Virus record (IMG/VR): IMGVR_UViG_3300031140_000003
Span: 1-63,464 of that record
Reading direction: 5' to 3' (one strand)
Source: a virus
Lineage: Duplodnaviria > Caudoviricetes
DNA: 63,464 bases
The notes beneath the pieces are model-generated. The model was not told where the DNA came from. It ran no database searches and was given only the letters and a program-made list of their open reading frames with translations. The position numbers were made by a program, and so were the translations under genes. Each line of letters begins with the position of its first letter. Positions within the stretch are counted from its first letter, which is position 1. This document shows positions 2 to 53,678 of the stretch, in pieces.

Positions 2-2548
2 GGTTTTCAAGGTGAAAAAGGAACTAAAGGAGATCAAGGTTTTCAAGGAGATACTGGATTAAAAGGAGATTTAGGAGATCAAGGTTTTCAAGGTGAAACA
101 GGAATCAAAGGAGATCAAGGTTTTCAAGGAGATACTGGATTAAAAGGAGATTTAGGAGATCAAGGTTTTCAAGGTGAAACAGGAATCAAAGGAGATCAAG
201 GTTTTCAAGGAGATACTGGAATCAAAGGAGATTTAGGAGATCAAGGTTTTCAAGGTGAAACAGGAATCAAAGGAGATCAAGGTTTTCAAGGAGATACTGG
301 AATCAAAGGAGATCAAGGTTTTCAAGGTGAAACAGGAATCAAAGGAGATACTGGAATCAAAGGAGATACTGGAATCAAAGGAGATCAAGGTTTTCAAGGA
401 GATACTGGAATCAAAGGAGATTTAGGAGATCAAGGTTTTCAAGGTGAAACAGGAATCAAAGGAGATCAAGGTTTTCAAGGTGAAAAAGGAACTAAAGGAG
501 ATCAAGGTTTTCAAGGTGAAAAAGGAACTAAAGGAGATACTGGAATCAAAGGAGATCAAGGTTTTCAAGGAGATACAGGAATCAAAGGAGATCAAGGTTT
601 TCAAGGAGATACTGGAATCAAAGGAGACAAAGGTACTAAAGGAGATCAAGGTTTTCAAGGAGATACTGGAATCAAAGGAGATCAAGGTTTTCAAGGAGAT
701 ACTGGATTAAAAGGAGATCAAGGTTTTCAAGGTGAAAAAGGAACTAAAGGAGATCAAGGTTTTCAAGGTGAAAAAGGAACTAAAGGAGATACTGGAATCA
801 AAGGAGATCAAGGTTTTCAAGGAGATACTGGATTAAAAGGAGATCAAGGTTTTCAAGGAGATACTGGATTAAAAGGAGATCAAGGTTTTCAAGGAGATAC
901 TGGAATCAAAGGAGATACTGGATTAAAAGGAGATCAAGGTTTTCAAGGAGATAATGGAATCAAAGGAGATACTGGATTAAAAGGAGATCAAGGTTTTCAA
1001 GGTGAAACAGGAATCAAAGGAGATCAAGGTTTTCAAGGAGATACTGGAATCAAAGGAGACAAAGGTACTAAAGGAGATCAAGGTTTTCAAGGAGATACTG
1101 GATTAAAAGGAGATCAAGGTTTTCAAGGAGATCAAGGTTTTCAAGGAGATACTGGAATCAAAGGAGATACAGGAATCAAAGGAGATCAAGGTTTTCAAGG
1201 AGATCAAGGTTTTCAAGGAGATACTGGAATCAAAGGAGATACTGGATTAAAAGGAGATCAAGGTTTTCAAGGAGATACTGGAATCAAAGGAGACAAAGGT
1301 ACTAAAGGAGATCAAGGTTTTCAAGGAGATACTGGAATCAAAGGAGATACGGGTATTAAAGGAGATCAAGGTTTTCAAGGAGATCAAGGTTTTCAAGGAG
1401 ATACTGGAATCAAAGGAGATACTGGAATCAAAGGAGATCAAGGTTTTCAAGGTGAAAAAGGAACTAAAGGAGATACTGGAATCAAAGGAGATCAAGGTTT
1501 TCAAGGAGATACTGGATTAAAAGGAGATCAAGGTTTTCAAGGAGATACTGGAATCAAAGGAGATACAGGAATCAAAGGAGATCAAGGTTTTCAAGGAGAT
1601 ACTGGAATCAAAGGAGATACGGGTATTAAAGGAGATACTGGAATCAAAGGAGATCAAGGTTTTCAAGGAGATACTGGAATCAAAGGAGACAAAGGTACTA
1701 AAGGAGATACTGGATTAAAAGGAGATCAAGGTTTTCAAGGTATTAAAGGAGATACTGGAATCAAAGGAGATCAAGGTTTTCAAGGAGATACTGGAATCAA
1801 AGGAGATACTGGAATCAAAGGAGATACTGGATTAAAAGGAGATCAAGGTTTTCAAGGTATTAAAGGAGATACTGGATTAAAAGGAGATCAAGGTTTTCAA
1901 GGTATTAAAGGAGATACTGGAATCAAAGGAGATACTGGATTAAAAGGAGATACTGGATTAAAAGGAGATCAAGGTTTTCAAGGTATTAAAGGAGATACTG
2001 GATTAAAAGGAGATCAAGGTTTTCAAGGAGATACTGGAATCAAAGGAGACAAAGGTACTAAAGGAGATCAAGGTTTTCAAGGAGATACTGGATTAAAAGG
2101 AGATCAAGGTTTTCAAGGTATTAAAGGAGATACTGGAATCAAAGGAGATACAGGATTAAAAGGAGATCAAGGTTTTCAAGGTATTAAAGGAGATACTGGA
2201 TTAAAAGGAGATCAAGGTTTTCAAGGTATCAAAGGAGATACTGGATTAAAAGGAGATCAAGGTTTTCAAGGTATTAAAGGAGATACTGGATTAAAAGGAG
2301 ATCAAGGTTTTCAAGGTATTAAAGGAGATACTGGAATCAAAGGAGATCAAGGTTTTCAAGGAGATACTGGAATCAAAGGAGACAAAGGTACTAAAGGAGA
2401 TCAAGGTTTTCAAGGTATTAAAGGAGATACTGGATTAAAAGGAGATCAAGGTTTTCAAGGTATTAAAGGAGATACTGGTATTAAAGGAGACAAAGGTACT
2501 AAAGGAGATACTGGATTAAAAGGATATCAAGGTTTTCAAGGAAATACT
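2..2548 (+). repeat. Shuffled tandem array of 9-nt units (GGAGATCAA, GGTTTTCAA, GGAGATACT, GGAATCAAA, GGATTAAAA, etc.)
   Basis: Directly visible; each unit encodes one Gly-X-Y triplet. Confidence 0.95.
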
Positions 2549-2746
2549 TTACCAGTAAATGGAAATGTAAATAATAGAATCTTAACAGCAACAGGAGGAG
2601 CATCAGTTAATGGTGAAAACTCTTTAACATTCGATGGAACAACACTAGCAACACCTAGGGTGATTACAGATACTATTGCAATAAGTACAGGATTTGAAAT
2701 AAGTAAAGATTCTTCTAGTGGAGATATTCTTTTTACATTTTCATAA
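2..2746 (+). CDS. Collagen-like fibre protein, 5'-truncated (about 280 Gly-X-Y triplets plus a short C-terminal domain)
   Basis: Not in the ORF track (no start in window). Frame 2 reads GFQ-GEK-GTK-GDQ-GFQ-GDT-GLK... and ends in GNTLPVNGNVNNRILTATGGASVNGENSLTFDGTTL...DILFTFS, TAA at 2744-2746. Confidence 0.9.
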   Translation, partial: GFQGEKGTKGDQGFQGDTGLKGDLGDQGFQGETGIKGDQGFQGDTGLKGDLGDQGFQGETGIKGDQGFQGDTGIKGDLGDQGFQGETGIKGDQGFQGDTGIKGDQGFQGETGIKGDTGIKGDTGIKGDQGFQGDTGIKGDLGDQGFQGETGIKGDQGFQGEKGTKGDQGFQGEKGTKGDTGIKGDQGFQGDTGIKGDQGFQGDTGIKGDKGTKGDQGFQGDTGIKGDQGFQGDTGLKGDQGFQGEKGTKGDQGFQGEKGTKGDTGIKGDQGFQGDTGLKGDQGFQGDTGLKGDQGFQGDTGIKGDTGLKGDQGFQGDNGIKGDTGLKGDQGFQGETGIKGDQGFQGDTGIKGDKGTKGDQGFQGDTGLKGDQGFQGDQGFQGDTGIKGDTGIKGDQGFQGDQGFQGDTGIKGDTGLKGDQGFQGDTGIKGDKGTKGDQGFQGDTGIKGDTGIKGDQGFQGDQGFQGDTGIKGDTGIKGDQGFQGEKGTKGDTGIKGDQGFQGDTGLKGDQGFQGDTGIKGDTGIKGDQGFQGDTGIKGDTGIKGDTGIKGDQGFQGDTGIKGDKGTKGDTGLKGDQGFQGIKGDTGIKGDQGFQGDTGIKGDTGIKGDTGLKGDQGFQGIKGDTGLKGDQGFQGIKGDTGIKGDTGLKGDTGLKGDQGFQGIKGDTGLKGDQGFQGDTGIKGDKGTKGDQGFQGDTGLKGDQGFQGIKGDTGIKGDTGLKGDQGFQGIKGDTGLKGDQGFQGIKGDTGLKGDQGFQGIKGDTGLKGDQGFQGIKGDTGIKGDQGFQGDTGIKGDKGTKGDQGFQGIKGDTGLKGDQGFQGIKGDTGIKGDKGTKGDTGLKGYQGFQGNTLPVNGNVNNRILTATGGASVNGENSLTFDGTTLATPRVITDTIAISTGFEISKDSSSGDILFTFS

Positions 2747-2775
2747 TACATAACCAAAAATAAATAAACAAAGAT

Positions 2776-4833
2776 ATGGCTTTACAAAATATAGCTTTAA
2801 AAATAGTAAGAACGACTGGGGAATTCCAAGCATCTTTATTCGACGAGACAACGTCTTCGTTTGGTATTGATACTACAACCGGATCGGTAAATACTCCAGC
2901 ATATTTTCAAGAACTAGACACATTTCCTTCGGGAAATGTGTTAACGTTCAAAGAAACAAACAATGCCATTATATCTAATAGTCAATTTGTTGGGAAAGGA
3001 ATATTATTAGCGAATACAACAATCGATAATAATCAAGTACTAACCCCTTCAAATTTTAATCCACTTAACCATTTATCTCTAAAGGGAGTTACCGGACATA
3101 CTGGTACCAAAGGAGATGATGGTTTTATTGGTTTAGTAGGCGATACTGGAGAAGTAGGATATCAAGGTGATATCGGATCTATCGGATCAACTGGAGATAC
3201 TGGAGATACTGGATTTCAAGGAACAACTGGAGCTAAAGGAGTTCAGGGAGTTCAAGGAGATATCGGTAACACTGGTGTTCAAGGTTCAATCGGAGCTCAG
3301 GGTTCTCAGGGTAACCAAGGTACTACAGGATATAAAGGATATAAAGGAAATACTGGACCAATAGGATCTCAAGGATCTGTTGGAGATAAGGGAGTTACTG
3401 GACCAATAGGGGTTCAAGGAGATACCGGGATTAACGGACCTCAGGGTGTTAATGGACAACCTGGTTTTATAGGACCTCAGGGTAATCAAGGAACTAAAGG
3501 AGTTCAGGGTTATAAAGGAATCACAGGAACTCAGGGAGTTCAGGGAGATACTGGTTTTATAGGAGTTAAAGGTAATCAAGGTGCATTAGGTAATACTGGA
3601 GCAACTGGATCACAAGGAGATAATGGAATCACCGGGCCTGTTGGAACAAATGGACCAACCGGACCTCAAGGTTTAAAGGGAAATCAAGGAGTTCAGGGTT
3701 ATAAAGGAATCACAGGAACTCAGGGAGTTCAGGGAGATGCTGGAAATACAGGAACACAGGGATCTAATGGTATTAATTCAGCATATGGTAATATTGGTTC
3801 AACAGGATCTGTTGGTAATATAGGACCGATTGGTGGTAATGGAATGACTGGATCTCAAGGTCAGATGGGAGATCAAGGAGCAAAGGGATCCACCGGATCA
3901 ACTGGATTAACAGGGCCACAGGGATTAATTGGAAACAAAGGTTCTCAAGGTGGTGCTGGATCAATAGGTGCAACTGGATATAAAGGTAACATAGGTATAA
4001 CAGGTAATAATAGAGGACCTCAAGGAAATACTGGAGCAACTGGAGCAAAAGGAGCAATTGGAAATACTGGTTCAACTGGTGCAACCGGTGCAACAGGCCC
4101 TAGGGGAGTTCAAGGGGCTAGAGGGCCTCAGGGATCTACTGGAGCTAAAGGAAATACCGGGGTACAGGGTTATAAAGGATTTATCGGAACAGGTGGAGCT
4201 AGAGGAGATCAGGGAAACATAGGAGCAAATGGAGATAGAGGATCACAGGGAGCTGTCGGATATACTGGGGTAAATGGTAATACTGGAACTACCGGATCAA
4301 CTGGTGGAAGAGGACCACAGGGAAATACTGGAGCAATTGGCGACTGGGGACCTGTTAGTACAGGAGGAGCTCGTGGAAACACAGGATCTCCTGGAGCAAA
4401 TGGAAACGTCGGGCACATTGGTTCTAAAGGATTAACAGGTTATAAAGGATTAACAGGTTATAAAGGACATAATGGAGTTGGAGGTTATAAAGGGAACATT
4501 GGATTAACTGGTTCAAAAGGAACAGTTACTGGACCTAATGGAAATACTGGACCTGCAGGTGCAAGAGGAGCACAAGGATACAGGGGAATTACTGGTACCG
4601 TTGGATCACCTGGCCCACAAGGAAGTCAAGGGGCTAGGGGAGTAAATGGACCGACTGGATCTACTGGACCACGAGGACCTCAAGGATATAAGGGAGATAG
4701 TGGAGCACAGGGAGCTACTGGACCTATGGGAACACAGGGTTTTCAAGGTATAAACGCCCCAAACAATTACTACGGGTATTCACATAACGGAGGAACTGTT
4801 GGAATATACGGTGGTATAATTAAATCACTCTAA
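2776..4833 (+). CDS. Collagen-like protein (chain A), Gly-X-Y at about aa 104-660
   Basis: ORF translation; long Gly-X-Y run between short non-collagenous ends. Confidence 0.9.
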   Translation: MALQNIALKIVRTTGEFQASLFDETTSSFGIDTTTGSVNTPAYFQELDTFPSGNVLTFKETNNAIISNSQFVGKGILLANTTIDNNQVLTPSNFNPLNHLSLKGVTGHTGTKGDDGFIGLVGDTGEVGYQGDIGSIGSTGDTGDTGFQGTTGAKGVQGVQGDIGNTGVQGSIGAQGSQGNQGTTGYKGYKGNTGPIGSQGSVGDKGVTGPIGVQGDTGINGPQGVNGQPGFIGPQGNQGTKGVQGYKGITGTQGVQGDTGFIGVKGNQGALGNTGATGSQGDNGITGPVGTNGPTGPQGLKGNQGVQGYKGITGTQGVQGDAGNTGTQGSNGINSAYGNIGSTGSVGNIGPIGGNGMTGSQGQMGDQGAKGSTGSTGLTGPQGLIGNKGSQGGAGSIGATGYKGNIGITGNNRGPQGNTGATGAKGAIGNTGSTGATGATGPRGVQGARGPQGSTGAKGNTGVQGYKGFIGTGGARGDQGNIGANGDRGSQGAVGYTGVNGNTGTTGSTGGRGPQGNTGAIGDWGPVSTGGARGNTGSPGANGNVGHIGSKGLTGYKGLTGYKGHNGVGGYKGNIGLTGSKGTVTGPNGNTGPAGARGAQGYRGITGTVGSPGPQGSQGARGVNGPTGSTGPRGPQGYKGDSGAQGATGPMGTQGFQGINAPNNYYGYSHNGGTVGIYGGIIKSL

Positions 4834-4860
4834 TAAATATAAAAATAAAAATAAATAATT

Positions 4861-7203
4861 ATGGCAAAATTTATATTAGGAACTACGCTAAACAGCAATA
4901 TAGTATTGCATAGTGGAAACCTAAATAGTACGAATTTTCCCGAATTCATTGGAGCTAATGGACCCCAAGGATCTAAAGGTACTCAAGGTACCCAAGGTCT
5001 TACGGGGTATATTGGGTTTAAAGGAGATCAAGGACTTTTAGGAGATACTGGTTTCAAAGGAATCAAAGGAAATCCAGGGTCGCAAGGAACTCATGGATCA
5101 CAGGGAATTATTGGTATTAAAGGAAATAAAGGATCTACTGGGGCTAATGGAGCAACAGGAGATATTGGTATTGTTGGAGAAGTTGGTTTATCTGGACAGC
5201 AAGGTGTTCAAGGAGATACTGGAATTCAAGGAGCTGTTGGTTCTAAAGGAAATCAGGGGGCTAATGGTGCACAAGGATCTAAAGGAACCTTAGGGTATGT
5301 TGGAATTCAAGGAGATAATGGTTTTCAAGGAGCACAGGGATCTACTGGATCTGTTGGTATCGTCGGAGACCGAGGAGCTCAGGGAACTACTGGAGCAAAT
5401 GGTGCTAAAGGAAATCAAGGACCTCAGGGAACTAAGGGTTTAGATGGTCTTACAGGATCTAATGGAGCACAGGGAACTAAGGGTCTAAAGGGATTTATAG
5501 GTAATAAAGGAGATAATGGAGTACAGGGATCTACTGGTATTAAAGGAGATGTTGGAAACAGAGGAAATCAAGGAACAACTGGGGCAATTGGAGCTAAAGG
5601 TAATAAAGGAGCTCAAGGAATTGGCGGAGCAACTGGATATCAAGGAGCAACTGGTCCACAAGGTACTCAAGGTACTAAGGGAATAACTGGTATTACTGGA
5701 TCATCATTCGGTAGATATACACAAACGAGTAGTTCATACATAACACCAACATCTAATTCAGATAAAACTAAATGGAGTTTTTCTAAATCCGGAACAACTG
5801 GTTGGAATTCACAATCATATTCTAATGAATCAATAACAGGATCAGCTACTATAAGATTTAGAGCAAATCCAGGATATCATCGAATGGTTGGTTTCAATTC
5901 TGATCCAACTTCTAATGCTAGTTATAATTCAATAGATTTTGCATTTTATCCACATGCTGGTAATACAAATATTTATGAAAGTGGTGGTAGTAAAATAAGT
6001 GATGTTCAAAGTGAAGTTAGATCATCTAGTGATATATACACTATAACATATAATGGTTCAACTGGATTAGTTAGTTACTATATACATGATGCAAGTTTAA
6101 ATCAAACTAGATTAATAAGAACAGTTACGACTGGTGCTAATAGAACTTTTTGGTTAGATACTTCAATGTATGAAACTGGAGCAGCTTTATATGATGTAGA
6201 ATTTTACGCTGGAATAAATATAGGTGCTAAGGGAAATACTGGACCTCAAGGAAATACTGGAACAACTGGAGCAACTGGAGCAACTGGAATTAAAGGAAAT
6301 ACAGGAGGTTCTGGATCAGTTGGATATACTGGACCAATGGGAGCACAAGGTTCTCAGGGTACTGAAGGAAATGTTGGTGCTAAAGGATCTACCGGGCCTA
6401 CTGGTTCAGTCGGTGATAAGGGGAATACAGGTCCAGCTGGTTATGTTGGAATTTCTGGATCTCAAGGTGCTGTTGGTTCAGGTGGAAATACTGGAGCAAC
6501 TGGAGATAAGGGATCAACTCCCGGAGGATACGGAGCACAAGGAAGCCAGGGTACTGGTGGATATAAAGGATGGTACGGATTTAGTGGGGATAAAGGAGCA
6601 ACAGGACCTTCGAGTGTAAGAGGGCCTCAAGGATCTAAGGGACTTACTGGAGCAGCAGGACCTGTAGGATATACTGGTAATAAAGGAGCAACTGGTGATA
6701 AAGGAGCAACCGGAGCTACAGGACCTACTGGATATAAAGGATACGTTGGATTAATTGGTAATAAAGGAGCATCTGGAGCATACGGGCCTCAAGGAGCTCG
6801 TGGAAATCAAGGATCTCAGGGATCTCAGGGATCTCAGGGAGCAAGAGGACCTCAAGGATCTCAAGGAGCCAAGGGATATACTGGATTAGTAGGATATAAA
6901 GGTCCTGATGGACCGGGAGGACCTACTGGATATAAAGGATATCAAGGTAATGCTGGTGGAAATTCTGGAACTGGTCCACAGGGACCTACTGGATATCAAG
7001 GTGCAGTCGGACCCGCTGGTGGAACAGGATCTGCTGGAGGTAGAGGAGCAAAAGGGAATCAGGGATCAGCTGGACCTACAGGATATAAAGGACTTACTGG
7101 TGATTTTGGACTTACTGGAGGACAGATATCTAATTACTTCTCAGGATCTTTTAATGATAATAATTTCATATCTAGAACAGTAGCAAATGGTAAAATACTA
7201 TAA
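4861..7203 (+). CDS. Collagen-like protein (chain B) with an internal ~170-aa globular insert
   Basis: Gly-X-Y at aa 31-282 and 455-755; aromatic, beta-rich insert between them. Confidence 0.9.
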   Translation: MAKFILGTTLNSNIVLHSGNLNSTNFPEFIGANGPQGSKGTQGTQGLTGYIGFKGDQGLLGDTGFKGIKGNPGSQGTHGSQGIIGIKGNKGSTGANGATGDIGIVGEVGLSGQQGVQGDTGIQGAVGSKGNQGANGAQGSKGTLGYVGIQGDNGFQGAQGSTGSVGIVGDRGAQGTTGANGAKGNQGPQGTKGLDGLTGSNGAQGTKGLKGFIGNKGDNGVQGSTGIKGDVGNRGNQGTTGAIGAKGNKGAQGIGGATGYQGATGPQGTQGTKGITGITGSSFGRYTQTSSSYITPTSNSDKTKWSFSKSGTTGWNSQSYSNESITGSATIRFRANPGYHRMVGFNSDPTSNASYNSIDFAFYPHAGNTNIYESGGSKISDVQSEVRSSSDIYTITYNGSTGLVSYYIHDASLNQTRLIRTVTTGANRTFWLDTSMYETGAALYDVEFYAGINIGAKGNTGPQGNTGTTGATGATGIKGNTGGSGSVGYTGPMGAQGSQGTEGNVGAKGSTGPTGSVGDKGNTGPAGYVGISGSQGAVGSGGNTGATGDKGSTPGGYGAQGSQGTGGYKGWYGFSGDKGATGPSSVRGPQGSKGLTGAAGPVGYTGNKGATGDKGATGATGPTGYKGYVGLIGNKGASGAYGPQGARGNQGSQGSQGSQGARGPQGSQGAKGYTGLVGYKGPDGPGGPTGYKGYQGNAGGNSGTGPQGPTGYQGAVGPAGGTGSAGGRGAKGNQGSAGPTGYKGLTGDFGLTGGQISNYFSGSFNDNNFISRTVANGKIL

Positions 7204-7227
7204 TCAAAAAAATAAAATAATAAAAAC

Positions 7228-9510
7228 ATGGCAAAATTAAATACAGGATCAACTGTAGGTGGTGAAACTCCCCTACATGTTGGTAATTTCCAAACAGGAA
7301 ATTATTCTGAGTTAGTAGGAGATCAAGGAGTTCTTGGTCAATCCGGTAATGTCGGTACACAAGGTTCACAGGGGATAAAGGGAATCGATGGTGTAAAGGG
7401 AGCACAAGGACCTCAGGGTATTAAAGGATCACAGGGATCTACCGGTCTTGTTGGTGATAATCCTACTGGAGATAAAGGACATATAGGAGTACAGGGAATA
7501 TCTCCAAAAGGAGATCAAGGATATGAAGGCCATATAGGTTTTCAAGGATCTACTGGCGATAAAGGAAATGTAGGGGATTCGCCCACTGGACCAAAGGGAA
7601 ACCAAGGAACTATTGGAGATTCTCCAACTGGACCAAGGGGACATCAGGGAAACAAAGGTTTAAGAGGAACACAAGGAAGTATTATAAATGGAAATCCTGG
7701 TTTTAAAGGAGATGTTGGTTTTATAGGACTTATTGGAGATAGTCCAAAAGGGCATATTGGTTCAAATGGACAACAGGGTCCTACTGGGTATCAGGGATCT
7801 ACTATTACTGCACAAACAGGCCCTCAAGGTAATCAAGGATCTCAAGGAGCTACTGGTTCTAACCCAACCGGACCAGAAGGTTTAAAAGGAGAACCTGGTT
7901 TTATAGGAGTTGTTGGAGATAGTCCAAAGGGACATATTGGAGACAGGGGACCTAATGGTCCAAGAGGAGTACAGGGAAGCACCTTAACAAACCAAACAGG
8001 ACCACAGGGACCTCAAGGAAATCAGGGATCTATCGGTAACGTTGGGCCTACTGGATTAAAAGGGACTAATGGTTTAAAAGGAATTACTGGAAATACAGGA
8101 TCTTCTCCAACAGGGGCTAAAGGTTATGACGGAGTACCTGGTGATAGAGGAGTACAGGGAGGTACTAATACAGGAGCAACTGGGAATCAGGGACCTCAGG
8201 GACCTACTGGTTATAATGGACTTTCTCCAAAAGGAGCAAAGGGAGATACAGGTTCAAGAGGATCACAGGGATCTAAAGGAGCACAACCAACAGGGTATAA
8301 AGGATTAACAGGATATAAAGGAGCAACTGGAGCACCTGGTGATCATTATAAAGGGGTAACTGGTGACAGAGGCCCACAGGGTTCACAGGGATATAAAGGA
8401 TCTGCACCGACCGGACCAGTTGGATATACAGCAGTTGGCGGTTCAAGAGGACCCCAAGGTTCTAGTCCAAGGGGAGCACAGGGTGCAACCGGATATAAAG
8501 GAGCAACAGGCGGAGTACCTGTTAGACCTAGAGGACCTCAAGGACCTCAAGGATATAAAGGAGCAACCGGTGGTACAGGAGCTTCACCAGTAGGAGCAAA
8601 GGGTTCTGTCGGAGCAACTGGAAATACAGGACCAACTGGAAATACAGGAGGTACTGGATCAGTCGGTAACAGAGGGCCTCAAGGAGCTCGTGGAAATCAG
8701 GGAGCTACTATCACAGGACCTAGAGGACCTCAGGGATATAAAGGACTTAATGGATACGGCGCATCTTATGCAGCAGGTGGAGCAAGGGGACCTCAAGGAG
8801 CAACTGGTAATCCAGGAGGAACTTCAAATGGAATAACTGGATATAAAGGAGATCCTGGACCTAATGGAGCTCGCGGAGTTCAAGGTTCAAAAGGATATAC
8901 TGGAATGAAAGGATACGCACAGACTAACGGTATTAATGGGAGTTTTTCAACAGCTTCACATACCGTATCATTCACTAACGGGCTAGTAACATCTATAACT
9001 ACATCTGGTCCACCTAGATGTTTAATTGCAGGAACTCAAGTCGAAATGGCTGATGGTACTTTCTCAAACATAGAAGACCTTATAGCAGGTGATGTTGTAA
9101 AGTCAGTAGATATACATTCGATGCCAGATACTGATAATGCGGAAATGCTTGCAACATGGAGCACTCAATCGTTAGGAGCTACATTTACAACGGCAATTGT
9201 TACTGGAAATGAAGCGTTAACTGTCGATATGATATATAGCATAAATAATGGACTTTTAACATGTTCATCTAGTCATTTACATATAATAGAACGTAATGGG
9301 ACATGGCATGTAAAGCAGACCTTTGAGTTATTAGGAGGAGATTATTTATTAAGTGAAGATAATTTCACCAAAATAGAAATAATATCAATAGACTCTGGAG
9401 ATTGTAACATAACGGGACATACTGTATATAATTTAGATGTTGAAAATGATGATGTTTATATTGCAAATGGAATAGTAACGCATAATAGGAAGCTAAGTCA
9501 ATTTGAATAA
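7228..9510 (+). CDS. Collagen-like protein (chain C) with C-terminal Hint (intein-like) domain
   Basis: Gly-X-Y at aa 31-564; Hint motifs CLIAGTQVEMADG, TCSSSH, VYNLDVENDDVYIANGIVTHN. Confidence 0.9.
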   Translation: MAKLNTGSTVGGETPLHVGNFQTGNYSELVGDQGVLGQSGNVGTQGSQGIKGIDGVKGAQGPQGIKGSQGSTGLVGDNPTGDKGHIGVQGISPKGDQGYEGHIGFQGSTGDKGNVGDSPTGPKGNQGTIGDSPTGPRGHQGNKGLRGTQGSIINGNPGFKGDVGFIGLIGDSPKGHIGSNGQQGPTGYQGSTITAQTGPQGNQGSQGATGSNPTGPEGLKGEPGFIGVVGDSPKGHIGDRGPNGPRGVQGSTLTNQTGPQGPQGNQGSIGNVGPTGLKGTNGLKGITGNTGSSPTGAKGYDGVPGDRGVQGGTNTGATGNQGPQGPTGYNGLSPKGAKGDTGSRGSQGSKGAQPTGYKGLTGYKGATGAPGDHYKGVTGDRGPQGSQGYKGSAPTGPVGYTAVGGSRGPQGSSPRGAQGATGYKGATGGVPVRPRGPQGPQGYKGATGGTGASPVGAKGSVGATGNTGPTGNTGGTGSVGNRGPQGARGNQGATITGPRGPQGYKGLNGYGASYAAGGARGPQGATGNPGGTSNGITGYKGDPGPNGARGVQGSKGYTGMKGYAQTNGINGSFSTASHTVSFTNGLVTSITTSGPPRCLIAGTQVEMADGTFSNIEDLIAGDVVKSVDIHSMPDTDNAEMLATWSTQSLGATFTTAIVTGNEALTVDMIYSINNGLLTCSSSHLHIIERNGTWHVKQTFELLGGDYLLSEDNFTKIEIISIDSGDCNITGHTVYNLDVENDDVYIANGIVTHNRKLSQFE

Positions 9511-9536
9511 CCCAATATACTTAATTTAAATATTTT

Positions 9537-9569
9537 AAAAGGATCTCATTTACGGGATCCTTTTTTTTT
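9537..9569 (+). terminator. Rho-independent terminator
   Basis: GGATCTC-ATTTAC-GGGATCC stem followed by T9. Confidence 0.85.
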
Positions 9570-9578
9570 GTAATATAT

Positions 9579-9605
9579 AAACAAATCAAGAATTACTTAT
9601 ATAAT
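9579..9605 (+). promoter_or_regulatory. AAAC-N17-TATAA promoter
   Basis: One of six intergenic copies with identical 17-nt spacing. Confidence 0.6.
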
Positions 9606-9622
9606 ATTTAAAATTCATATTA

Positions 9623-10552
9623 ATGCACGAGACTAATATTAAAAACATAATACTTAATGTTGATTCAGTATCTGAAGGATTAAATTCAACATGGGATATT
9701 AGAGGATGGATAGGTACTACTGAACCTAAAACAAAGGTAACATCCTTATTAATAGACGGAGAGCCTTTAGAAATATTATGGGAAAATAGATCAGACGTAT
9801 ATGATTATTACGAAGGAACTTTAGAGTTTTGTTCAGGTTTTAATATTTCAATTCCAAAAAGTAAAATAAACATGAATTTATGGATAGGTTTAAACGAATC
9901 TATCGTCGAATTCATCACATTAGGTAAATGGGTTGCCGCTAAATCAGGTTTCAATAAAATCAATAAGGACGCAATGGTCGTTGATAATTTTTATGCAGAT
10001 CCAGATTTAGTTAGAGAGTATGCTATGAATCATTTAGAGTTTGCTCCCTCAGGATATCATAAAGGACAGAGATCACAGACTAGATATATTTTAGATGGAA
10101 CTAAAGAAAAATTAGAAGAGGTCCTAGGAAAGAAGATAATCAACTGGAATTACGAAGAATACGCTAATGGCGTTTTTCAATTCTGTACTGCCGATCAACC
10201 TATTGTTTTTCATGTAGATTCTCAAATGTATGCTGGTATGGTTTATTTAACGCCCAATGCCCCACCTCAAACAGGGACTTCAACATATAAAAGTAAAGTC
10301 ACAGGATTTAATGCATTTCCAGGTTTAGAATCTAGGAAAGGTATTGAATATTATGAAAGCTTTAAAGGATCTAATAACGATATGAATTTCTATGACGGTA
10401 CTCAATTCGAAAAGATTGATGAAATAGGAAACGTATATAATAGACTGGTAATTTTTAACTCATCACAAATTCATGCAGCTACCGAATACTTCGGAGATGC
10501 TATAGATAATGCAAGATTCTTTCACATGTTCTTCTTTGACGTAGAACAATAA
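9623..10552 (+). CDS. 2OG-Fe(II) oxygenase-like protein (DUF6445-type) with N-terminal extra domain
   Basis: VVDNFYADPDLVR, HVD (HxD), GMVYLTP, NVYNRLVIF...H, R.F..FF. Confidence 0.75.
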   Translation: MHETNIKNIILNVDSVSEGLNSTWDIRGWIGTTEPKTKVTSLLIDGEPLEILWENRSDVYDYYEGTLEFCSGFNISIPKSKINMNLWIGLNESIVEFITLGKWVAAKSGFNKINKDAMVVDNFYADPDLVREYAMNHLEFAPSGYHKGQRSQTRYILDGTKEKLEEVLGKKIINWNYEEYANGVFQFCTADQPIVFHVDSQMYAGMVYLTPNAPPQTGTSTYKSKVTGFNAFPGLESRKGIEYYESFKGSNNDMNFYDGTQFEKIDEIGNVYNRLVIFNSSQIHAATEYFGDAIDNARFFHMFFFDVEQ

Positions 10553-10566
10553 AAATAACAATTTAA

Positions 10567-12447
10567 ATGAAAATTAATATAATTACAAGATGTACTAGAC
10601 CTGGTAATCTTTCAAAGATTAGCAATAGTGTATTTGACACATCAAGAACAAATGAGGTAGACATCCACTGGCATATAATGTTTGACTCAGGAGCTTTGAA
10701 AGATATAGATGCTGAAATTCTAGCAGATATAGATCAAGCAAATACAACATTACATTTTATAAAAGCTCAGAAAGATTATATGATGTACCCTGAAATGACA
10801 GATCTAATAAGACATGTTGTTGCGAAAACAACAGATCATTCAGGTTGGTTTTATGTACTAGATGATGATAATATAATGCACCATAATTTTTATCAAAAAA
10901 TTGAAGAAAACATGATGCTTCCTGAGAATTCTAATAAAGTAATGTATATTGTTTCTCAGCACGTTAATGGTAAGGATTTTACAAAATTAGATATTAGAAT
11001 TGCTGCTCCAGAATTTACCGGTCGCAAGAAGACTGATATGGGCCAGCTTTTATTTAGAGGAGATCTCTTCGATGAATACTGTTTCCCAACAGAAAATGCA
11101 TTCGATGCATATTCGGCAGATGGGATATTCTTAGATGCAGTTTATGGGGATCACCCTGAGAGATTTGTTTGGATTAATGAGGTTCTTTCACACTATAATT
11201 ACTTACAGAAAGAGGCAACCCCCAAACTGCCAAGGATCCTATATATAGGTGAAGGATCTCCGGATTTAAAAACAACAAAGCATCTAGAATACGAGTCCGA
11301 CGAATTAACAGTTAGATATGCAAAAGACGATAATAATATTAATATGATTCTAGCGGAATTCAAACCCGATTCTATAATAACAATAGGAGATAGTTTTGAA
11401 GATTTTCCGAATTTAGCAGCAATGCCTCTTCAATTTAGAAGAAAGTGGATGAATATCAACAATAATAATAACATATCTGATTTTGGAAACATTGCATATA
11501 AGGTTTCAGAAAATGCAATGTTAGATCCAAACAATATGGATGACCATGATTTAATATCATTCACGACTCCAATTTATAACATCGGAGAAAATCTATGGAA
11601 AACATATGAATCAGTCGCAAGACAGACTTATGCTAATTGGGAATGGGTATTAATGAATGATTCAACCGATGGTGGTAAAACATTAAAGGTTGCTGAAGAA
11701 ATTGCAAAACATGACCCAAGGGTTAAAGTTTATGATTTCAGAGAAAAATCAGGAGGAGTTATTGGTGAAGTGAAATGGAGAGCAAATTCAATGTCAAGAG
11801 GATATATTATTGCCGAACTAGATCATGATGATTTATTAGTAGAATCATGCGCTGAAGATTTACATAAAGCGGCACAGAAGCACCCTGAATGCGGATTCTT
11901 CTATGGAGATACTGCTGAAGTTACTGAAGAATGGGAAAACAATATGTATGGGCCTGGATTCGCACTAGGATACGGTAATTATAGAAAGGAAGAATATAAA
12001 GGTAGGATGTTGACTCCAGCGAATCAACAGAACATTAACCCAAAAACAATAAGACATATTGTTGGAGTTCCTAATCATATTAGAGCATGGCGAAGATCTA
12101 CTTATTTTGAAATCGGAGGACATAACAGGAGTTTGACTGTTGTTGATGATTATGAATTAATAGTTAGAACATTCTTAAAAACAATAATGTGTAAGATACC
12201 TAAATTAAGTTATATTCAATTCTTATATAGTAATGAAGGTCACAGGAACACGCATGATTTATCTAGAGCAGATATTCAAAGAAGAACTAGGACAATTGCT
12301 GACTATTATAATATACAAATAAAGGAACGTTTTGAGGAACTCGGAATCCATGACTGGGCATATGAGGAGAATCCAAACTATCCGATACACGCAGAATCCC
12401 GATTCGGAAAAGAAGAAGGTGTTGCTAATATAACATATCAAGAATAA
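10567..12447 (+). CDS. Two-domain GT-A/GT2 glycosyltransferase
   Basis: N-domain YVLDDDN; C-domain TPIYN...SVARQTYANWEWVLMNDSTD...ELDHDD...IGGH...DDYEL. Confidence 0.85.
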   Translation: MKINIITRCTRPGNLSKISNSVFDTSRTNEVDIHWHIMFDSGALKDIDAEILADIDQANTTLHFIKAQKDYMMYPEMTDLIRHVVAKTTDHSGWFYVLDDDNIMHHNFYQKIEENMMLPENSNKVMYIVSQHVNGKDFTKLDIRIAAPEFTGRKKTDMGQLLFRGDLFDEYCFPTENAFDAYSADGIFLDAVYGDHPERFVWINEVLSHYNYLQKEATPKLPRILYIGEGSPDLKTTKHLEYESDELTVRYAKDDNNINMILAEFKPDSIITIGDSFEDFPNLAAMPLQFRRKWMNINNNNNISDFGNIAYKVSENAMLDPNNMDDHDLISFTTPIYNIGENLWKTYESVARQTYANWEWVLMNDSTDGGKTLKVAEEIAKHDPRVKVYDFREKSGGVIGEVKWRANSMSRGYIIAELDHDDLLVESCAEDLHKAAQKHPECGFFYGDTAEVTEEWENNMYGPGFALGYGNYRKEEYKGRMLTPANQQNINPKTIRHIVGVPNHIRAWRRSTYFEIGGHNRSLTVVDDYELIVRTFLKTIMCKIPKLSYIQFLYSNEGHRNTHDLSRADIQRRTRTIADYYNIQIKERFEELGIHDWAYEENPNYPIHAESRFGKEEGVANITYQE

Positions 12448-13037
12448 TGAGCTATCCATACGACGCAAAGCAAAATGAAGCAATATCACACTACTGGTTT
12501 GCAGAGGGTTTTTCATCTGAGGAACTCAAATTAATAGAAGACGGTGTTGCTGTATTACCATATATGAGGGGGACTGTTCATTCAAAAAATGCGCATGATA
12601 GAAAATCCAATATAAAATGGATTCCAAATCACTCAGAATGGGATTGGCTTTATTATAAATTAATGAGATTCGCTGATATTGCTAATGAGGAAATGTGGAA
12701 GTTTGATTTGAAATCCGCCGGCGAATTAATACAATATACTGAATATGATTCTGATGAGTTAGGTAAATATGACTGGCATCAAGATATTGGATTAGGGGAC
12801 ACTTCTTCCAGGAAAATATCAATAACAGTACAGTTATCAGATTCAAACGAATATGAAGGTGGAGATCTTTGTTTCTGGCAAGGAGGACCTTCTCTAGAGG
12901 AGAATAATATAATAGCTCCTAGAGGAAAAGGGAATGTTGTATTGTTTCCTAGCTACATCGTCCACTCGGTTAAACCAGTTACTAAAGGAACTAGAAAATC
13001 ATTTGTCCTATGGTTAGGAGGAGGACATTATAAATAA
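12447..13037 (+). CDS. 2OG-Fe(II) oxygenase, prolyl-4-hydroxylase/PKHD-like
   Basis: YDWHQD, RKISITVQLSD..YEGGDL, VLFPSY..HSVKPVTKGTRKS.VLW. Confidence 0.88.
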   Translation: MSYPYDAKQNEAISHYWFAEGFSSEELKLIEDGVAVLPYMRGTVHSKNAHDRKSNIKWIPNHSEWDWLYYKLMRFADIANEEMWKFDLKSAGELIQYTEYDSDELGKYDWHQDIGLGDTSSRKISITVQLSDSNEYEGGDLCFWQGGPSLEENNIIAPRGKGNVVLFPSYIVHSVKPVTKGTRKSFVLWLGGGHYK

Positions 13038-51287: not shown

Positions 51288-53678
51288 ATGTCAATAAGTA
51301 TTAAAGAAATATTTAAAAGTGATCTAGATCCTAACAATCCTAATTGGTGGGCTAAATCCAAAGTTGATAAACTTAATTTTAATTTTAATCAATTAGAGAA
51401 TGGAGGTATGCCAGGTCCTATTGGAGTACAAGGCCCTGATGGAATTACAGGTAATCTAGGATACGACGGCCCAGACGGAACAAAGGGACCTAATGGAAAT
51501 CAAGGTTTCATAGGTCTTGATGGATTTTCAACATGGGAAAAACATAATGATTCCTCAAAAACTAACAGTACTCTAACGCCAACTGAATCAGGACATCCTG
51601 AATTTTCAGCTGTTCCAGTTATTATTGGAGTACAATCAGGTCATAATATGTATGATAATTCATTGGACTGGGAAAGAACCCCAAGTGTGTTCTTCGGATC
51701 CCCTACTAGAAATAATATAAGTATGGGAGATGGTTTCGGGAACCGATCAGCCTTTCATTTAACTAATAATGGATTAGATGTCGGTAGAACTAGTTTACCG
51801 GGAACATCAAACCCGTTGAATATTAAGATTGATTTACAAAACTTAACACATAATTTATATAATTCAAACGGAAATATACTTGCTACTTTCACAGAATCAA
51901 TATTTACTACAGAGATTCCAGTTAGATCAGAAGACACTAAAATAGATACTTTAAAATACACGAAAAACATAGCAGAATCTAAAGTATTAACTTCTGTCAA
52001 TGATACAGGTGAAGTTGTTTGGAGAAATAAATACGAAGTATTTGGGGCACTTCCAGTAGGTTCTATTATGTCAATAGGTTCTGTTGATTTCAACGATACA
52101 AATTTTTACAAAGATATTAGCACGAGTGTTGATGTTAATAGTGGATTGCTTGAAGTATCATATGGAAGGGGAAGGGAAAACACTGCATTTGATGGATGGT
52201 ATTTATGTAATGGACAAACTTGGGATTATCAGGGTATTATTTCGTATTTAGTGCCTAATTTAAATTCTTTTAGGTATAGTATAGAAAGTGATGGTAATTT
52301 ACAAAGCATACATTCATCTGATGTTGCTAGTAATAATCCGGTTTTAATCGGGGGAGGTAATATATCTGTTGATTGTATATTTAACAGTGTAGATAGTACA
52401 TATGATGTAACAGGTTCTACCGATTCATCTGATATATTAACATCGTTTAATAGTGGAGGAACTACGCTTTCTCAAAATAAACAAATCCATCTTATTAATT
52501 TAGGAAACGCGCTACTTAGTTGGAAAACCGGAGCAGGTACTCAAATAGCAACAACACCTATTGTTTTATCAGACCCTAGTGATTCTTCTTTAATATCATG
52601 TTCAGCCTCTAGTCAAACGTATGATTGGACAGGTACTTCTAGTAATATATGGGAAGATCAACAAGACGATTTAAATGGTATTGTTTTATATGATTCTAAT
52701 TTATCTATTGCGCCTGCTAATAAATGGTATGCTAAAAATGGACTTTCTAGATTTTGGAATGGATCATCATTTACATTATTCGAAGCATGTGCTACTCAAA
52801 ATAACATATCTCTAAGGCATGACACTAGTGTTTTAAATTTAAACTGGACAATGCCTTTAAATGGTGTTACCCATGTAATAAATGAAAGCACATTTGCATT
52901 AGCAACAACATTAAACATAAATGGAGGAACTGCTCCTGTCGGTTGGTATAGAGAAACTGATCCTAATAACACAGTGTGGGTAAGAAGATATTGGAATGGT
53001 AGTTCATTTGGCCAAGATAATATATTAGATAATTTTGTAAAATATGCAGGTGAAATTGAGGTTTCATTTGGGATTGGATCACATTCTTGTACTTTTTCTG
53101 ATTCAGCACAGCATATATACTATTCAACAAATGTTCAATATCCGTTAGGAAGTAATATCTTAGAAAGAATTAATAGTTCTGATGGTATTGTTTTTGTTAA
53201 TAATGCGTTTGTAGATGTTAATGACGGAACATCTCATATATTAAAGATAAAAAATCAAATCAAAATAGGTGCTCAATTTCCATACGGATCTTTATTAGAT
53301 GCAGATACTACGCCTGACACAAGATCTGATATAACAAATAGTAGTCGATTAGATGGGGTATATCAATGCGGTGGTATTATCATAGATGGAGGTCAATATA
53401 TAACAGAAGCAAATAATGCTAATGGTAACGTAGTATTCGGTAGTATACACGTAAGTCAAGGAGGTCTTAGCATTAAAATAATAACTGCTGGGGGTATTTA
53501 TCGAAATGACCGAACAACATCAACCTTAAATATATCAGGTATGTCTATATATGAGGGAATCAGTGGTAGTACCCCAAGTGAACATTATATAACATTTAAT
53601 AATGCTGGAACATATACTTATATAATGTCAGCAGATTTCGAAGGAGAAGGCGGTAGTGTTACATTGTTAGTACCTTAA
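51288..53678 (+). CDS. Tail fibre with short collagen segment and tail-collar-like domain
   Basis: DKLNFNFNQL, about 10 Gly-X-Y triplets, LPVGSI...GWYLCNG...VPNL; repeated WY...R.WNGSSF. Confidence 0.75.
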   Translation: MSISIKEIFKSDLDPNNPNWWAKSKVDKLNFNFNQLENGGMPGPIGVQGPDGITGNLGYDGPDGTKGPNGNQGFIGLDGFSTWEKHNDSSKTNSTLTPTESGHPEFSAVPVIIGVQSGHNMYDNSLDWERTPSVFFGSPTRNNISMGDGFGNRSAFHLTNNGLDVGRTSLPGTSNPLNIKIDLQNLTHNLYNSNGNILATFTESIFTTEIPVRSEDTKIDTLKYTKNIAESKVLTSVNDTGEVVWRNKYEVFGALPVGSIMSIGSVDFNDTNFYKDISTSVDVNSGLLEVSYGRGRENTAFDGWYLCNGQTWDYQGIISYLVPNLNSFRYSIESDGNLQSIHSSDVASNNPVLIGGGNISVDCIFNSVDSTYDVTGSTDSSDILTSFNSGGTTLSQNKQIHLINLGNALLSWKTGAGTQIATTPIVLSDPSDSSLISCSASSQTYDWTGTSSNIWEDQQDDLNGIVLYDSNLSIAPANKWYAKNGLSRFWNGSSFTLFEACATQNNISLRHDTSVLNLNWTMPLNGVTHVINESTFALATTLNINGGTAPVGWYRETDPNNTVWVRRYWNGSSFGQDNILDNFVKYAGEIEVSFGIGSHSCTFSDSAQHIYYSTNVQYPLGSNILERINSSDGIVFVNNAFVDVNDGTSHILKIKNQIKIGAQFPYGSLLDADTTPDTRSDITNSSRLDGVYQCGGIIIDGGQYITEANNANGNVVFGSIHVSQGGLSIKIITAGGIYRNDRTTSTLNISGMSIYEGISGSTPSEHYITFNNAGTYTYIMSADFEGEGGSVTLLVP

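Follow-up and report, generated by a model that had tools for sequence, protein, structure and literature searches.

Three adjacent collagen genes of an uncultured marine phage probably encode the chains of one mixed triple helix

Introduction

Can a phage build a collagen from three different chains? The question is raised by three consecutive genes, here called A, B and C, at positions 2776–9510 of IMG/VR record IMGVR_UViG_3300031140_000003, a 63,464-bp contig of a tailed virus (Duplodnaviria; Caudoviricetes) that constitutes the entire record and is called the window below. A preliminary description, made from the letters of the window, proposed that the three products are paralogous collagen chains that wind into an ABC heterotrimer. 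The prior is unfavourable, as characterised prokaryotic collagens are homotrimers according to PMC8968730, and no natural heterotrimeric collagen from a phage or a prokaryote was found in our literature searches. The proposal is nevertheless supported, at the level of sequence, by synteny, co-varying chain lengths, matching interruptions and inter-chain charge pairs, and we put the probability that A, B and C form one 1:1:1 mixed triple helix at roughly 0.8.

Architecture of the three collagen genes

The genes and their parts, all on the plus strand, are as follows.

2776–4833, plus, gene A, collagen chain of 685 amino acids
2776–2994, plus, N-terminal extra part of A, residues 1–73
2995–3084, plus, shared 30-residue pre-collagen segment of A
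3085–4755, plus, collagen domain of A, residues 104–660, 183 perfect triplets and 4 interruptions, 187 triplet equivalents
4756–4830, plus, tail of A, 25 residues
4861–7203, plus, gene B, collagen chain of 780 amino acids, in total 185 triplet equivalents
4861–4950, plus, 30-residue segment of B
4951–5706, plus, collagen part 1 of B, 84 triplets
5707–6222, plus, globular insert of B, residues 283–454, 172 residues, after triplet 84
6223–7125, plus, collagen part 2 of B, 98 perfect triplets and 3 interruptions
7126–7200, plus, tail of B, 25 residues
7228–9510, plus, gene C, collagen chain of 760 amino acids
7228–7317, plus, 30-residue segment of C
7318–8919, plus, collagen domain of C, residues 31–564, 156 perfect triplets and 22 interruptions, 185 triplet equivalents
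8920–9018, plus, tail and linker of C, residues 565–597
9019–9486, plus, Hint / bacterial-intein-like domain at the C-terminus of C, from Cys598 to His752-Asn753, followed by 7 residues
9537–9574, plus, terminator-like hairpin with a T run, directly 3' of gene C

All three products belong to the Pfam Collagen family (PF01391), with E-values of 3e-78, 2e-75 and 2e-43 and scores of 257.9, 249.1 and 146.8 bits for A, B and C against a cut-off of 27.2, and with 183, 182 and 156 perfect Gly-X-Y triplets respectively they are predicted to fold as triple helices. Proline is scarce (29, 27 and 49 residues per chain in A, B and C), and lysine occupies 15–20% of the Y positions in all three. Chain C is sharply unlike the other two chains in its 22 interruptions, where A has 4 and B has 3 in addition to its insert. 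The collagenous lengths given in the preliminary description, 557 residues in A (104–660), 553 in B (31–755 minus the 172-residue insert) and 534 in C (31–564), are reproduced here, and the three 17-residue strings that it placed in identical register are present and end at the first Gly (residues 88–104 in A, 15–31 in B and C). The similarity ahead of the first Gly extends beyond these strings and spans 30 residues; B and C start with MAK exactly 30 residues ahead of the first Gly, and A has the same segment behind its extra part of 73 residues. This segment stands in the same register in 12 of 12 aligned related triads. The post-collagen tails, which had been called related from the window, carry across the relatives a common short motif in all three chain types, hydrophobic-x-hydrophobic-x-(N/G)-G-hydrophobic-hydrophobic. 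The 30-residue segments and the tails of about 25 residues are candidates for chain-selection or trimerisation elements. A tblastn search of phages with the N-terminal part of A gave no match, and its AlphaFold2 (AF2) monomer model has a predicted local distance difference test score (pLDDT) of 43.

A fourth collagen gene, U, lies directly upstream of A. The spacers between U, A, B and C are 29, 27 and 24 nt and contain no terminator-like sites, and since the spacers are this short and the single terminator-like site follows C, the genes A, B and C are probably co-expressed. No RNA run was listed among those carrying the region, which speaks neither for nor against.

Conservation of the gene set and of the chain lengths

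Searches of viral and metagenome collections, first with the glycosyltransferase encoded downstream and afterwards with the N-terminal sequence of B, yielded 42 loci (numbered with the prefix L), giving 43 sources together with the window. The order U-A-B-C is present in all 29 sources that have the complete region; among the 14 partial sources, ten hold parts of that order, broken off by a contig end or a frameshift, and the remaining four (L008–L010 and L012) have no A, B or C gene. A seemingly short B in L026 (190–2135) was discarded, being a gene that is frame-shifted near nt 620 with the collagen reading on in another frame to the contig end. By sequence there are 17 distinct triads, of which 14 were analysed after L006, L020 and L024 had been dropped as near-duplicates of L005, L021 and L023.

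Lengths are given in triplet equivalents (te), where each interruption is counted as its length divided by three and rounded up. Scoring one-residue interruptions as insertions instead shifts the totals by 1–4 te and leaves the picture unaltered. The values for A/B/C are:

window, 187/185/185
L041, 190/193/190
L021, 191/193/190
L007, 220/222/220
L023, 222/224/220
L035, 232/235/232
L011, 241/243/241
L029, 257/262/258
L001, 269/260/260
L004, 266/263/264
L003, 279/277/278
L005, 278/277/278
L027, 280/279/265, mismatched triad with a shorter C
L032, 241/243/220, mismatched triad with a shorter C
L034, B/C pair, 235/218, shorter C

The preliminary description had held that relatives with variable numbers of chains of unrelated length would speak against a heterotrimer; instead the set is kept and the lengths co-vary. 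Across the 14 triads they range from 185 to 280 te, with Pearson coefficients over all 14, the two mismatched triads included, of 0.995 (A-B), 0.979 (B-C) and 0.981 (A-C). The median differences are 2 te for A-B, 2.5 for B-C and 1 for A-C, and an equally tight agreement was reached in 0 of 100,000 permutations. The three chains agree within 9 te in 12 of the 14 triads and within 5 te in 11 of those 12; in the 12 matched triads B and C differ by 0–4 te and are identical in the window and in L001. Counting one two-residue unit of C as one triplet level is not arbitrary, because B and C then agree and because the charge-pair test described below fails otherwise.

Changes in length affect A, B and C alike. 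Where L003 has a segment of 76 triplets in A and another in B, L004 has 62 triplets in each, and C has lost two 20-residue units at the place that matches the loss in A and B, which makes 14 te in each chain; from L007 to L011 about 21 te are gained in all three. Internal repeats measure 189 bp (63 residues) in A and B and 180 bp (60 residues) in C, and both correspond to 21 te. With a rise per residue of 0.286 nm, 185 te of three residues correspond to a rod of 159 nm, or about 160 nm, in agreement with the 155 nm estimated earlier.

A common lattice of interruptions

Chain C has four irregular early interruptions (te 17, 22, 31 and 36) and is then interrupted every 7 te, mostly by a two-residue Gly-less unit, Pro-Thr, Pro-Lys or Pro-Arg, that follows Ser. 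In all loci it is built of 20-residue units with six Gly-X-Y triplets and a Pro-x unit, with the consensus G-x-S-P-(T/K)-G. A comparison of interruption positions between the chains had been suggested as a check, and the interruptions of A and B are found to coincide with those of C: in 10 lineages 72 of 135 overlap an interruption in C where 23.7 are expected, and 91 of 135 lie within ±1 te where 56.8 are expected. The interruptions of A and B vary between lineages yet stay on the C lattice. The residues opposite the interruptions of C are also biased, and at these levels A has Pro in X 67 times (25 expected) and Ile in Y 44 times (15 expected), and B has Gln in Y 108 times (61 expected). Seven triplets may, speculatively, correspond to the repeat of a 7/2 collagen helix; with such a match all Pro-x units of C would be aligned on a single face of the rod, as sites for modification or docking.

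Charge pairs between the chains

Lys or Arg in Y at level i was counted against Asp or Glu in X at level i plus an offset, for all ordered chain pairs and offsets. Summed over the 10 lineages there are peaks for B to A at +1 (152, background 72.2±12.7), A to C at +1 (179, background 71.9±12.9) and C to B at +2 (108, background 50.1±8.6). The reverse directions (A to B, C to A and B to C) have no peak, nor have the self pairs at +1. The window alone has 9 pairs from B to A (2.8±1.5), 7 from A to C (2.1±1.3) and 6 from C to B (2.2±1.2), values that are matched by 0, 0 and 1 of 80 other offsets respectively, and its self pairs number 3, 3 and 4. Chain A of the window thus takes the acidic side in its 9 pairs with B, in which Lys of B faces Asp of A, and the basic side in its 7 pairs with C, and 21 of the 22 cross-chain pairs are impossible in a homotrimer. 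Taken one by one, the 14 triads have a peak higher than every one of the 80 other offsets in 11 cases for B to A, in 12 for A to C and in 7 for C to B. Offsets of +1, +1 and +2 are those of a one-residue-staggered helix, and their sum of 4 is independent of how the chain origins are set. If the chains have a common starting level, which their equal N-terminal segments suggest, B should lead, with A in the middle and C trailing. Among the 27 possible lead.middle.trail assignments this one, B.A.C, ranks first by number of axial pairs in 11 of the 14 triads, and in the window it scores 22, with the next best at 16 and AAA, BBB and CCC at 6, 8 and 9.

Cation-aromatic pairs are raised for C to B at +2 (147, background 75.4±14.9) and A to C at +1 (114, background 73.8±10.4), and also for A to A at +1 (110, background 63.0±9.5), with nothing for B to A, and are supportive at best. 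Acid in Y with base in X, hydrophobic pairs and pairs of Gln with acid gave no pattern.

Equal lengths, interruptions at matching levels and contacts that favour one composition and one stagger are found together in this gene set. The exact stagger B.A.C is held with somewhat less confidence than the 1:1:1 mixed helix, and a register-specific ABC collagen of a phage, with charge pairs, a 7-triplet lattice and single-copy modules on a rod of about 160 nm, is likely as a whole. Structure prediction, proposed earlier as a way of telling ABC from the three homotrimers, is weakly positive: the N-terminal parts of B, A and C together gave an interface score (ipSAE) of 0.49, with 0.02 as the best of 3 controls, a result that cannot separate hetero- from homotrimers. 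At least 98% of the contacts agree between runs and the partners have a pLDDT of at least 80. Of 80 solved complexes 58 reached the mark applied, as did 2 of 110 mismatched pairs; only 7 of the 80 solved complexes, and both of the mismatched pairs that passed, did so with an ipSAE of 0.60 or less.

Weighing of the alternatives

Several observations weigh against a mixed helix or against its B.A.C order, and they are set out here with the alternatives that they favour. The three chains could form separate homotrimeric fibres, AAA, BBB and CCC, that are equally long since their ends are fixed in the virion or since they are bundled side by side, with interruption sites that come from a common repetitive ancestor. 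Besides the precedent of all characterised prokaryotic collagens, a homotrimer would house the insert of B more naturally, as a trimeric knob, and we know of no characterised triple helix in which a single chain carries a globular insert like that of 172 residues in B. All chains consist of 7- and 21-triplet repeat units, so the shared lattice could partly be ancestral; in the window only 4 of the 7 interruptions in A and B overlap exactly with one in C (A78, A162, B129 and B168); and on three contigs C is of unequal length, being shorter by 14–23 te in L027, L032 and the B/C pair of L034. Per repeat, a homotrimer with a Y(i)/X(i+1) motif makes two axial pairs and one lateral pair (PMC12086834). 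The self axial pairs of A, B and C are at background and lie above all other offsets in 0 of 42 tests (three chains in 14 triads), whereas the homotrimer-type U next door has 89 self pairs at +1 in the window against 46.3±14.0, and the U genes of L011, L019 and L031 have self peaks at both +1 and +2. The cross pairs of A, B and C stand at single offsets in a cyclic arrangement, and descent does not explain them, because the X/Y identity of the paralogues is 10% in register and 13% in shifted registers. Neither the lineage-specific interruptions of A and B that keep to the lattice of C, nor the inserts, which lengthen one chain only and leave the te unchanged (L041 without and L021 with insert, L035 without and L037 with insert), fit three independent fibres, and we regard these as unlikely.

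A mixed helix might also have another composition, such as A2C or AB2, or exist as several registers in equilibrium, or be shared by only some of the chain types. B.A.C is second or third of the 27 assignments in 3 of 14 triads, another assignment equals or beats it in L041, L021 and L027, its lead is only 1–5 pairs in L023, L029 and L001, where the charge density is high, and the C to B peak tops the other offsets in just half of the triads. In the window 21 of the 22 pairs are found in te 1–95 and one at te 114, and because the charge pairs are concentrated in the N-terminal half, support for the register of the C-terminal part comes only from the interruptions. Each of the three cross peaks, on the other hand, belongs to a different chain pair, and axial peaks for A to A, B to B and C to C, which molecules of the A2C type need, are lacking. 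All three lengths co-vary, and B.A.C is first in the other 11 triads. Such compositions are accordingly given a low probability, below that of separate homotrimers.

Finally, the chains might not associate physically, and the matching and complementarity would then be by-products of repeats, composition and metagenomic assembly. The genes are repetitive and come from short-read metagenome assemblies, and the three length mismatches are located in repeats. Each short C differs by 120 or 180 bp, equal to two or three of the 20-residue units, within a DNA tandem repeat that aligns in two registers, and the difference could be repeat collapse in assembly or real variation and slippage:

L027, 8102–10573, short C copy
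L032, 5580–7715, short C copy
L034, 4209–6305, short C copy

In L001, chain A exceeds both of its partners by 9 te. The lineages are moreover mutually related, so that pooled statistics are inflated and summed z-values overstate independence. Against this explanation, the peaks stand at single offsets relative to 80 shifted controls in the window alone, and the peaks involving C vanish when its interruptions are recounted: with the two-residue units of C as zero levels, A to C falls from 179 to 103 and C to B from 108 to no peak, while B to A is 151. U, which is adjacent and equally repetitive, behaves otherwise. The same sequence is found in contigs from three other marine runs; these cover 2500–9700 piecewise, no piece spanning a whole gene, with 0–1 differences and no indels. 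A lack of association is very improbable. Joints were also seen in contigs of the other runs, with sides of only 21–22 letters between collagen repeats, and were taken as cross-matches.

Proposed assembly of the fibre

In the mixed helix that we favour, one copy each of A, B and C would wind into a triple helix of about 185 triplet levels and 159 nm, staggered by one residue from chain to chain in the order B, A, C from leading to trailing. The short ends, N-terminal segments of 30 residues and tails of about 25, would gather the chains and set the start of the register, and the charge pairs, mostly in the N-terminal half, would choose composition and stagger. On the virion the fibre might serve as a long appendage for adsorption. 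A heterotrimer would allow modules in single copy: A would contribute its extra N-terminal part, as a possible anchor, B a SPRY lectin-like knob some 72 nm away from the N-terminus, and C a Hint domain that cleaves itself. The fibre may be modified by the neighbouring oxygenases and glycosyltransferase. The length of the molecule would evolve by compensated 7-triplet insertions and deletions in the three genes.

Domains carried by single chains

The preliminary description placed a globular insert in one chain and a Hint domain in another. The insert of B is borne out, and the Hint domain is seen through matches below the family thresholds and one match in PDB. For the insert, an AF2 model made from a 5-sequence alignment has a pLDDT of 81.9 and a predicted template modelling score (pTM) of 0.82. 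Foldseek gave 240 matches in PDB with E ≤ 0.001, headed by PRY-SPRY/B30.2 domains and legume lectins (E 8e-6 to 2e-4), with query-normalised template modelling scores (TMq) of 0.41–0.59 and PRY-SPRY on top at 0.52–0.59. At the sequence level no Pfam family has an E-value below 0.09, and SPRY appears in the Atlas only at 0.89, on 35% of the cluster members. By its model the insert should be a cassette with the SPRY / concanavalin-A-like beta-sandwich fold.

No relatives of the insert turned up in IMG/VR by pattern scan or in a word-indexed search with protein residues 283–454; relatives were found inside the collagen chains of the metagenome loci. The same domain is present in chain A of L023 (te 144, 79% identical), L029 (te 187), L021 and L037, and a second type of cassette, of 154 residues, is present in chain B of L021 and L037:

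L023, 2035–2550, insert cassette
L029, 8672–9217, insert cassette
L021, 9162–9674 and 10847–11308, insert cassettes
L037, 2526–3044 and 4564–5025, insert cassettes

The two types, of about 172 and 154 residues, are thus located at te 84, 126, 144, 169, 187 and 211 in A or B, and never in C among the loci examined. From this distribution the globular inserts appear to be mobile cassettes.

The C-terminal domain of C starts with Cys598, after Gly-Pro-Pro-Arg, and ends with His752-Asn753, and it therefore has the N-terminal nucleophile and the C-terminal His-Asn of Hint and bacterial-intein-like domains, with block similarity at both ends. Pfam gives E-values of 0.002–0.2, with Hint_2, Vint and Hom_end_hint for the N-terminal block and Intein_splicing for the C-terminal block; unlike in known Hint domains the scores are below the family cut-offs (18.3 against 35.8 bits for Intein_splicing, 13.5 against 28.4 for Hint_2). 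In PDB the C-terminal block resembles the Hint-type block of 6y75/6tmm (E 1e-3, 6y75_A). Asn753 is followed by Arg754 and the nucleophile needed for splicing is lacking at this place; cleavage and not splicing is expected, because no Cys, Ser or Thr follows the Asn. It is also unusual for a Hint domain to terminate one chain of a collagen. A like domain is found on C of L001, with Pfam matches at both ends, and of L029, judged only by a Cys-led tail like that of the window, and is absent from the other 9 of the 12 aligned triads, indicating that it is optional.

Two fibre-like proteins further along the window, encoded at 53726–56302 (858 amino acids) and 51288–53678 (796 amino acids), each have, close to the N-terminus, a short run of about 13 collagen triplets. 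The product of 53726–56302 has a C-terminal Hint-type block almost the same as that of chain C, and because it ends in such a block the phage would have two structural proteins with a self-processing C-terminal domain.

Gene U and other collagen genes

U (2–2746, plus) is a highly repetitive collagen gene with its 5' end off the contig, which starts inside it, and encodes 283 uninterrupted Gly-X-Y triplets and a non-collagen tail of 65 residues. Complete copies measure 44–361 te, and their length is independent of that of A–C. From its length and its self pairs, U is a neighbour of the triad and not a member chain, and probably forms a homotrimer. Loci L008–L010 have a glycosyltransferase that is 55–58% identical and, upstream, another collagen gene with a different tail and a self peak at +1. 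These distant genes lie on cut contigs:

L008, 3–1109, upstream collagen gene
L009, 1–1845, upstream collagen gene
L010, 1–393, upstream collagen gene

Downstream genes and possible modification of the fibre

Three genes follow the triad:

9623–10552, plus, DUF6445 protein, Pfam 1e-10
10567–12447, plus, family-2 glycosyltransferase, 626 amino acids, Pfam Glycos_transf_2 1.5e-17
12447–13037, plus, 2-oxoglutarate (2OG)-Fe(II) oxygenase of prolyl/lysyl-hydroxylase type, 196 amino acids, Pfam 2OG-FeII_Oxy_3 7e-14

Relatives in PDB are GalT1 (5hea, 2.5e-9) and the PKHD-type hydroxylase PiuC (1e-4), the first 320 or so residues of the glycosyltransferase match nothing, and a relative of the DUF6445 protein is labelled 'minor coat protein' in PHROGs. 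The three genes adjoin the triad in relatives, and with the glycosyltransferase as anchor 12 syntenic loci were found. An oxygenase and a glycosyltransferase are thus encoded together with collagen genes, as in viral collagen modification modules, and their products are candidate collagen-modifying enzymes. Since the enzymes are syntenic and Lys is common in Y positions, a modification system like that of Mimivirus is a fair inference.

The source phage

All gene-like open reading frames of at least 100 codons in the window are on the plus strand, and the GC content is about 32%, rising to about 40% across the collagen genes. The contig encodes baseplate wedge and hub, tail tube, head-tail adaptor, PhoH, dCMP deaminase, single-stranded DNA-binding protein and primase. 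A protein of 1219 amino acids shows 25–36% identity to proteins of large Bacteroidota-type and huge phages, namely LR756500.1, Chryseobacterium phages MA9V-1/2, Flavobacterium phage MaF61, Tenacibaculum phages PTm1/PTm5/pT24, Sphingomonas phage PAU and Lak phages. Related contigs reach 175 and 222 kb, and the origin is marine metagenomes. By these features the contig should be a fragment of an uncultured marine myophage of jumbo type. A DNA search of a phage collection with 24 kb of the window gave no match, and no collagen match was found in any of five records searched (LR756500.1, PTm1, PAU, MA9V-1 and MaF61). Phages of the PTm1 type are described with head fibres in PMC13282480 and PMC7824862; with no collagen match in PTm1, the A–C fibres cannot be equated with these.

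Comparison with known systems and significance

The phage triad resembles the heterotrimeric collagens of animals (types I, IV, VI and IX; complement C1q) in its distinct chain genes, equal lengths, interruptions at matching levels and stagger. It differs in that its owner is a phage and in that one chain is without Gly at every seventh triplet. In animals the choice of chains is made by non-collagenous domains of 20 to 250 residues (PMC8968730), compared with termini of about 30 and 25 residues in the phage, whose composition and stagger appear to be encoded in the helix by charge pairs. The stability of animal collagen relies on hydroxyproline, and the phage chains are poor in Pro. Lys-Asp pairs have been used in design work on collagen-mimetic peptide heterotrimers. 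Designed ABC peptides, like the phage chains, combine a basic Y residue with an acidic or aromatic X residue of the neighbour's next triplet (PMC12086834) and leave the homotrimers unpaired; they are synthetic and of about 30 residues, whereas the phage set is natural, about 185–280 triplets long, and has compensated 7-triplet indels.

Scl1/Scl2, BclA, SPP1 gp12 and the PRD1 spike likewise have Gly-X-Y repeats that do not depend on hydroxyproline, are rich in Thr, Gln and Lys, and form surface or virion fibres. They are homotrimers, a kind that U fits, whereas A, B and C lack the self-complementary Lys-Gly-Asp/Glu pattern of prokaryotic and phage homotrimers and have cross-chain pairs instead. 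Mimivirus also combines several collagen genes with a 2OG oxygenase and a glycosyltransferase (PMC4691112), but its L230 is one bifunctional enzyme of a eukaryotic giant virus, compared with separate genes of predicted activity in a tailed phage here. No report of a heterotrimer among the Mimivirus collagen-like proteins was found in our literature searches.

If the mixed helix is true, it would be the first natural mixed-chain collagen outside animals; such collagens are regarded as an animal invention, and the prokaryotic ones are described as homotrimers in PMC8968730. It would imply that a helix, together with very small end segments, can itself specify which chains combine and how they are staggered, which is the solution designed by peptide chemists. 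The 14 triads, of 185–280 triplets, would be a natural test set for the rules of heterotrimer specificity and interruption tolerance, and could offer a bacterial-type scaffold for heterotrimeric recombinant collagens, an unsolved problem according to the same review. For the phage, a mixed helix would be a route to single-copy binding and processing modules on a fibre that is otherwise three-fold symmetric.

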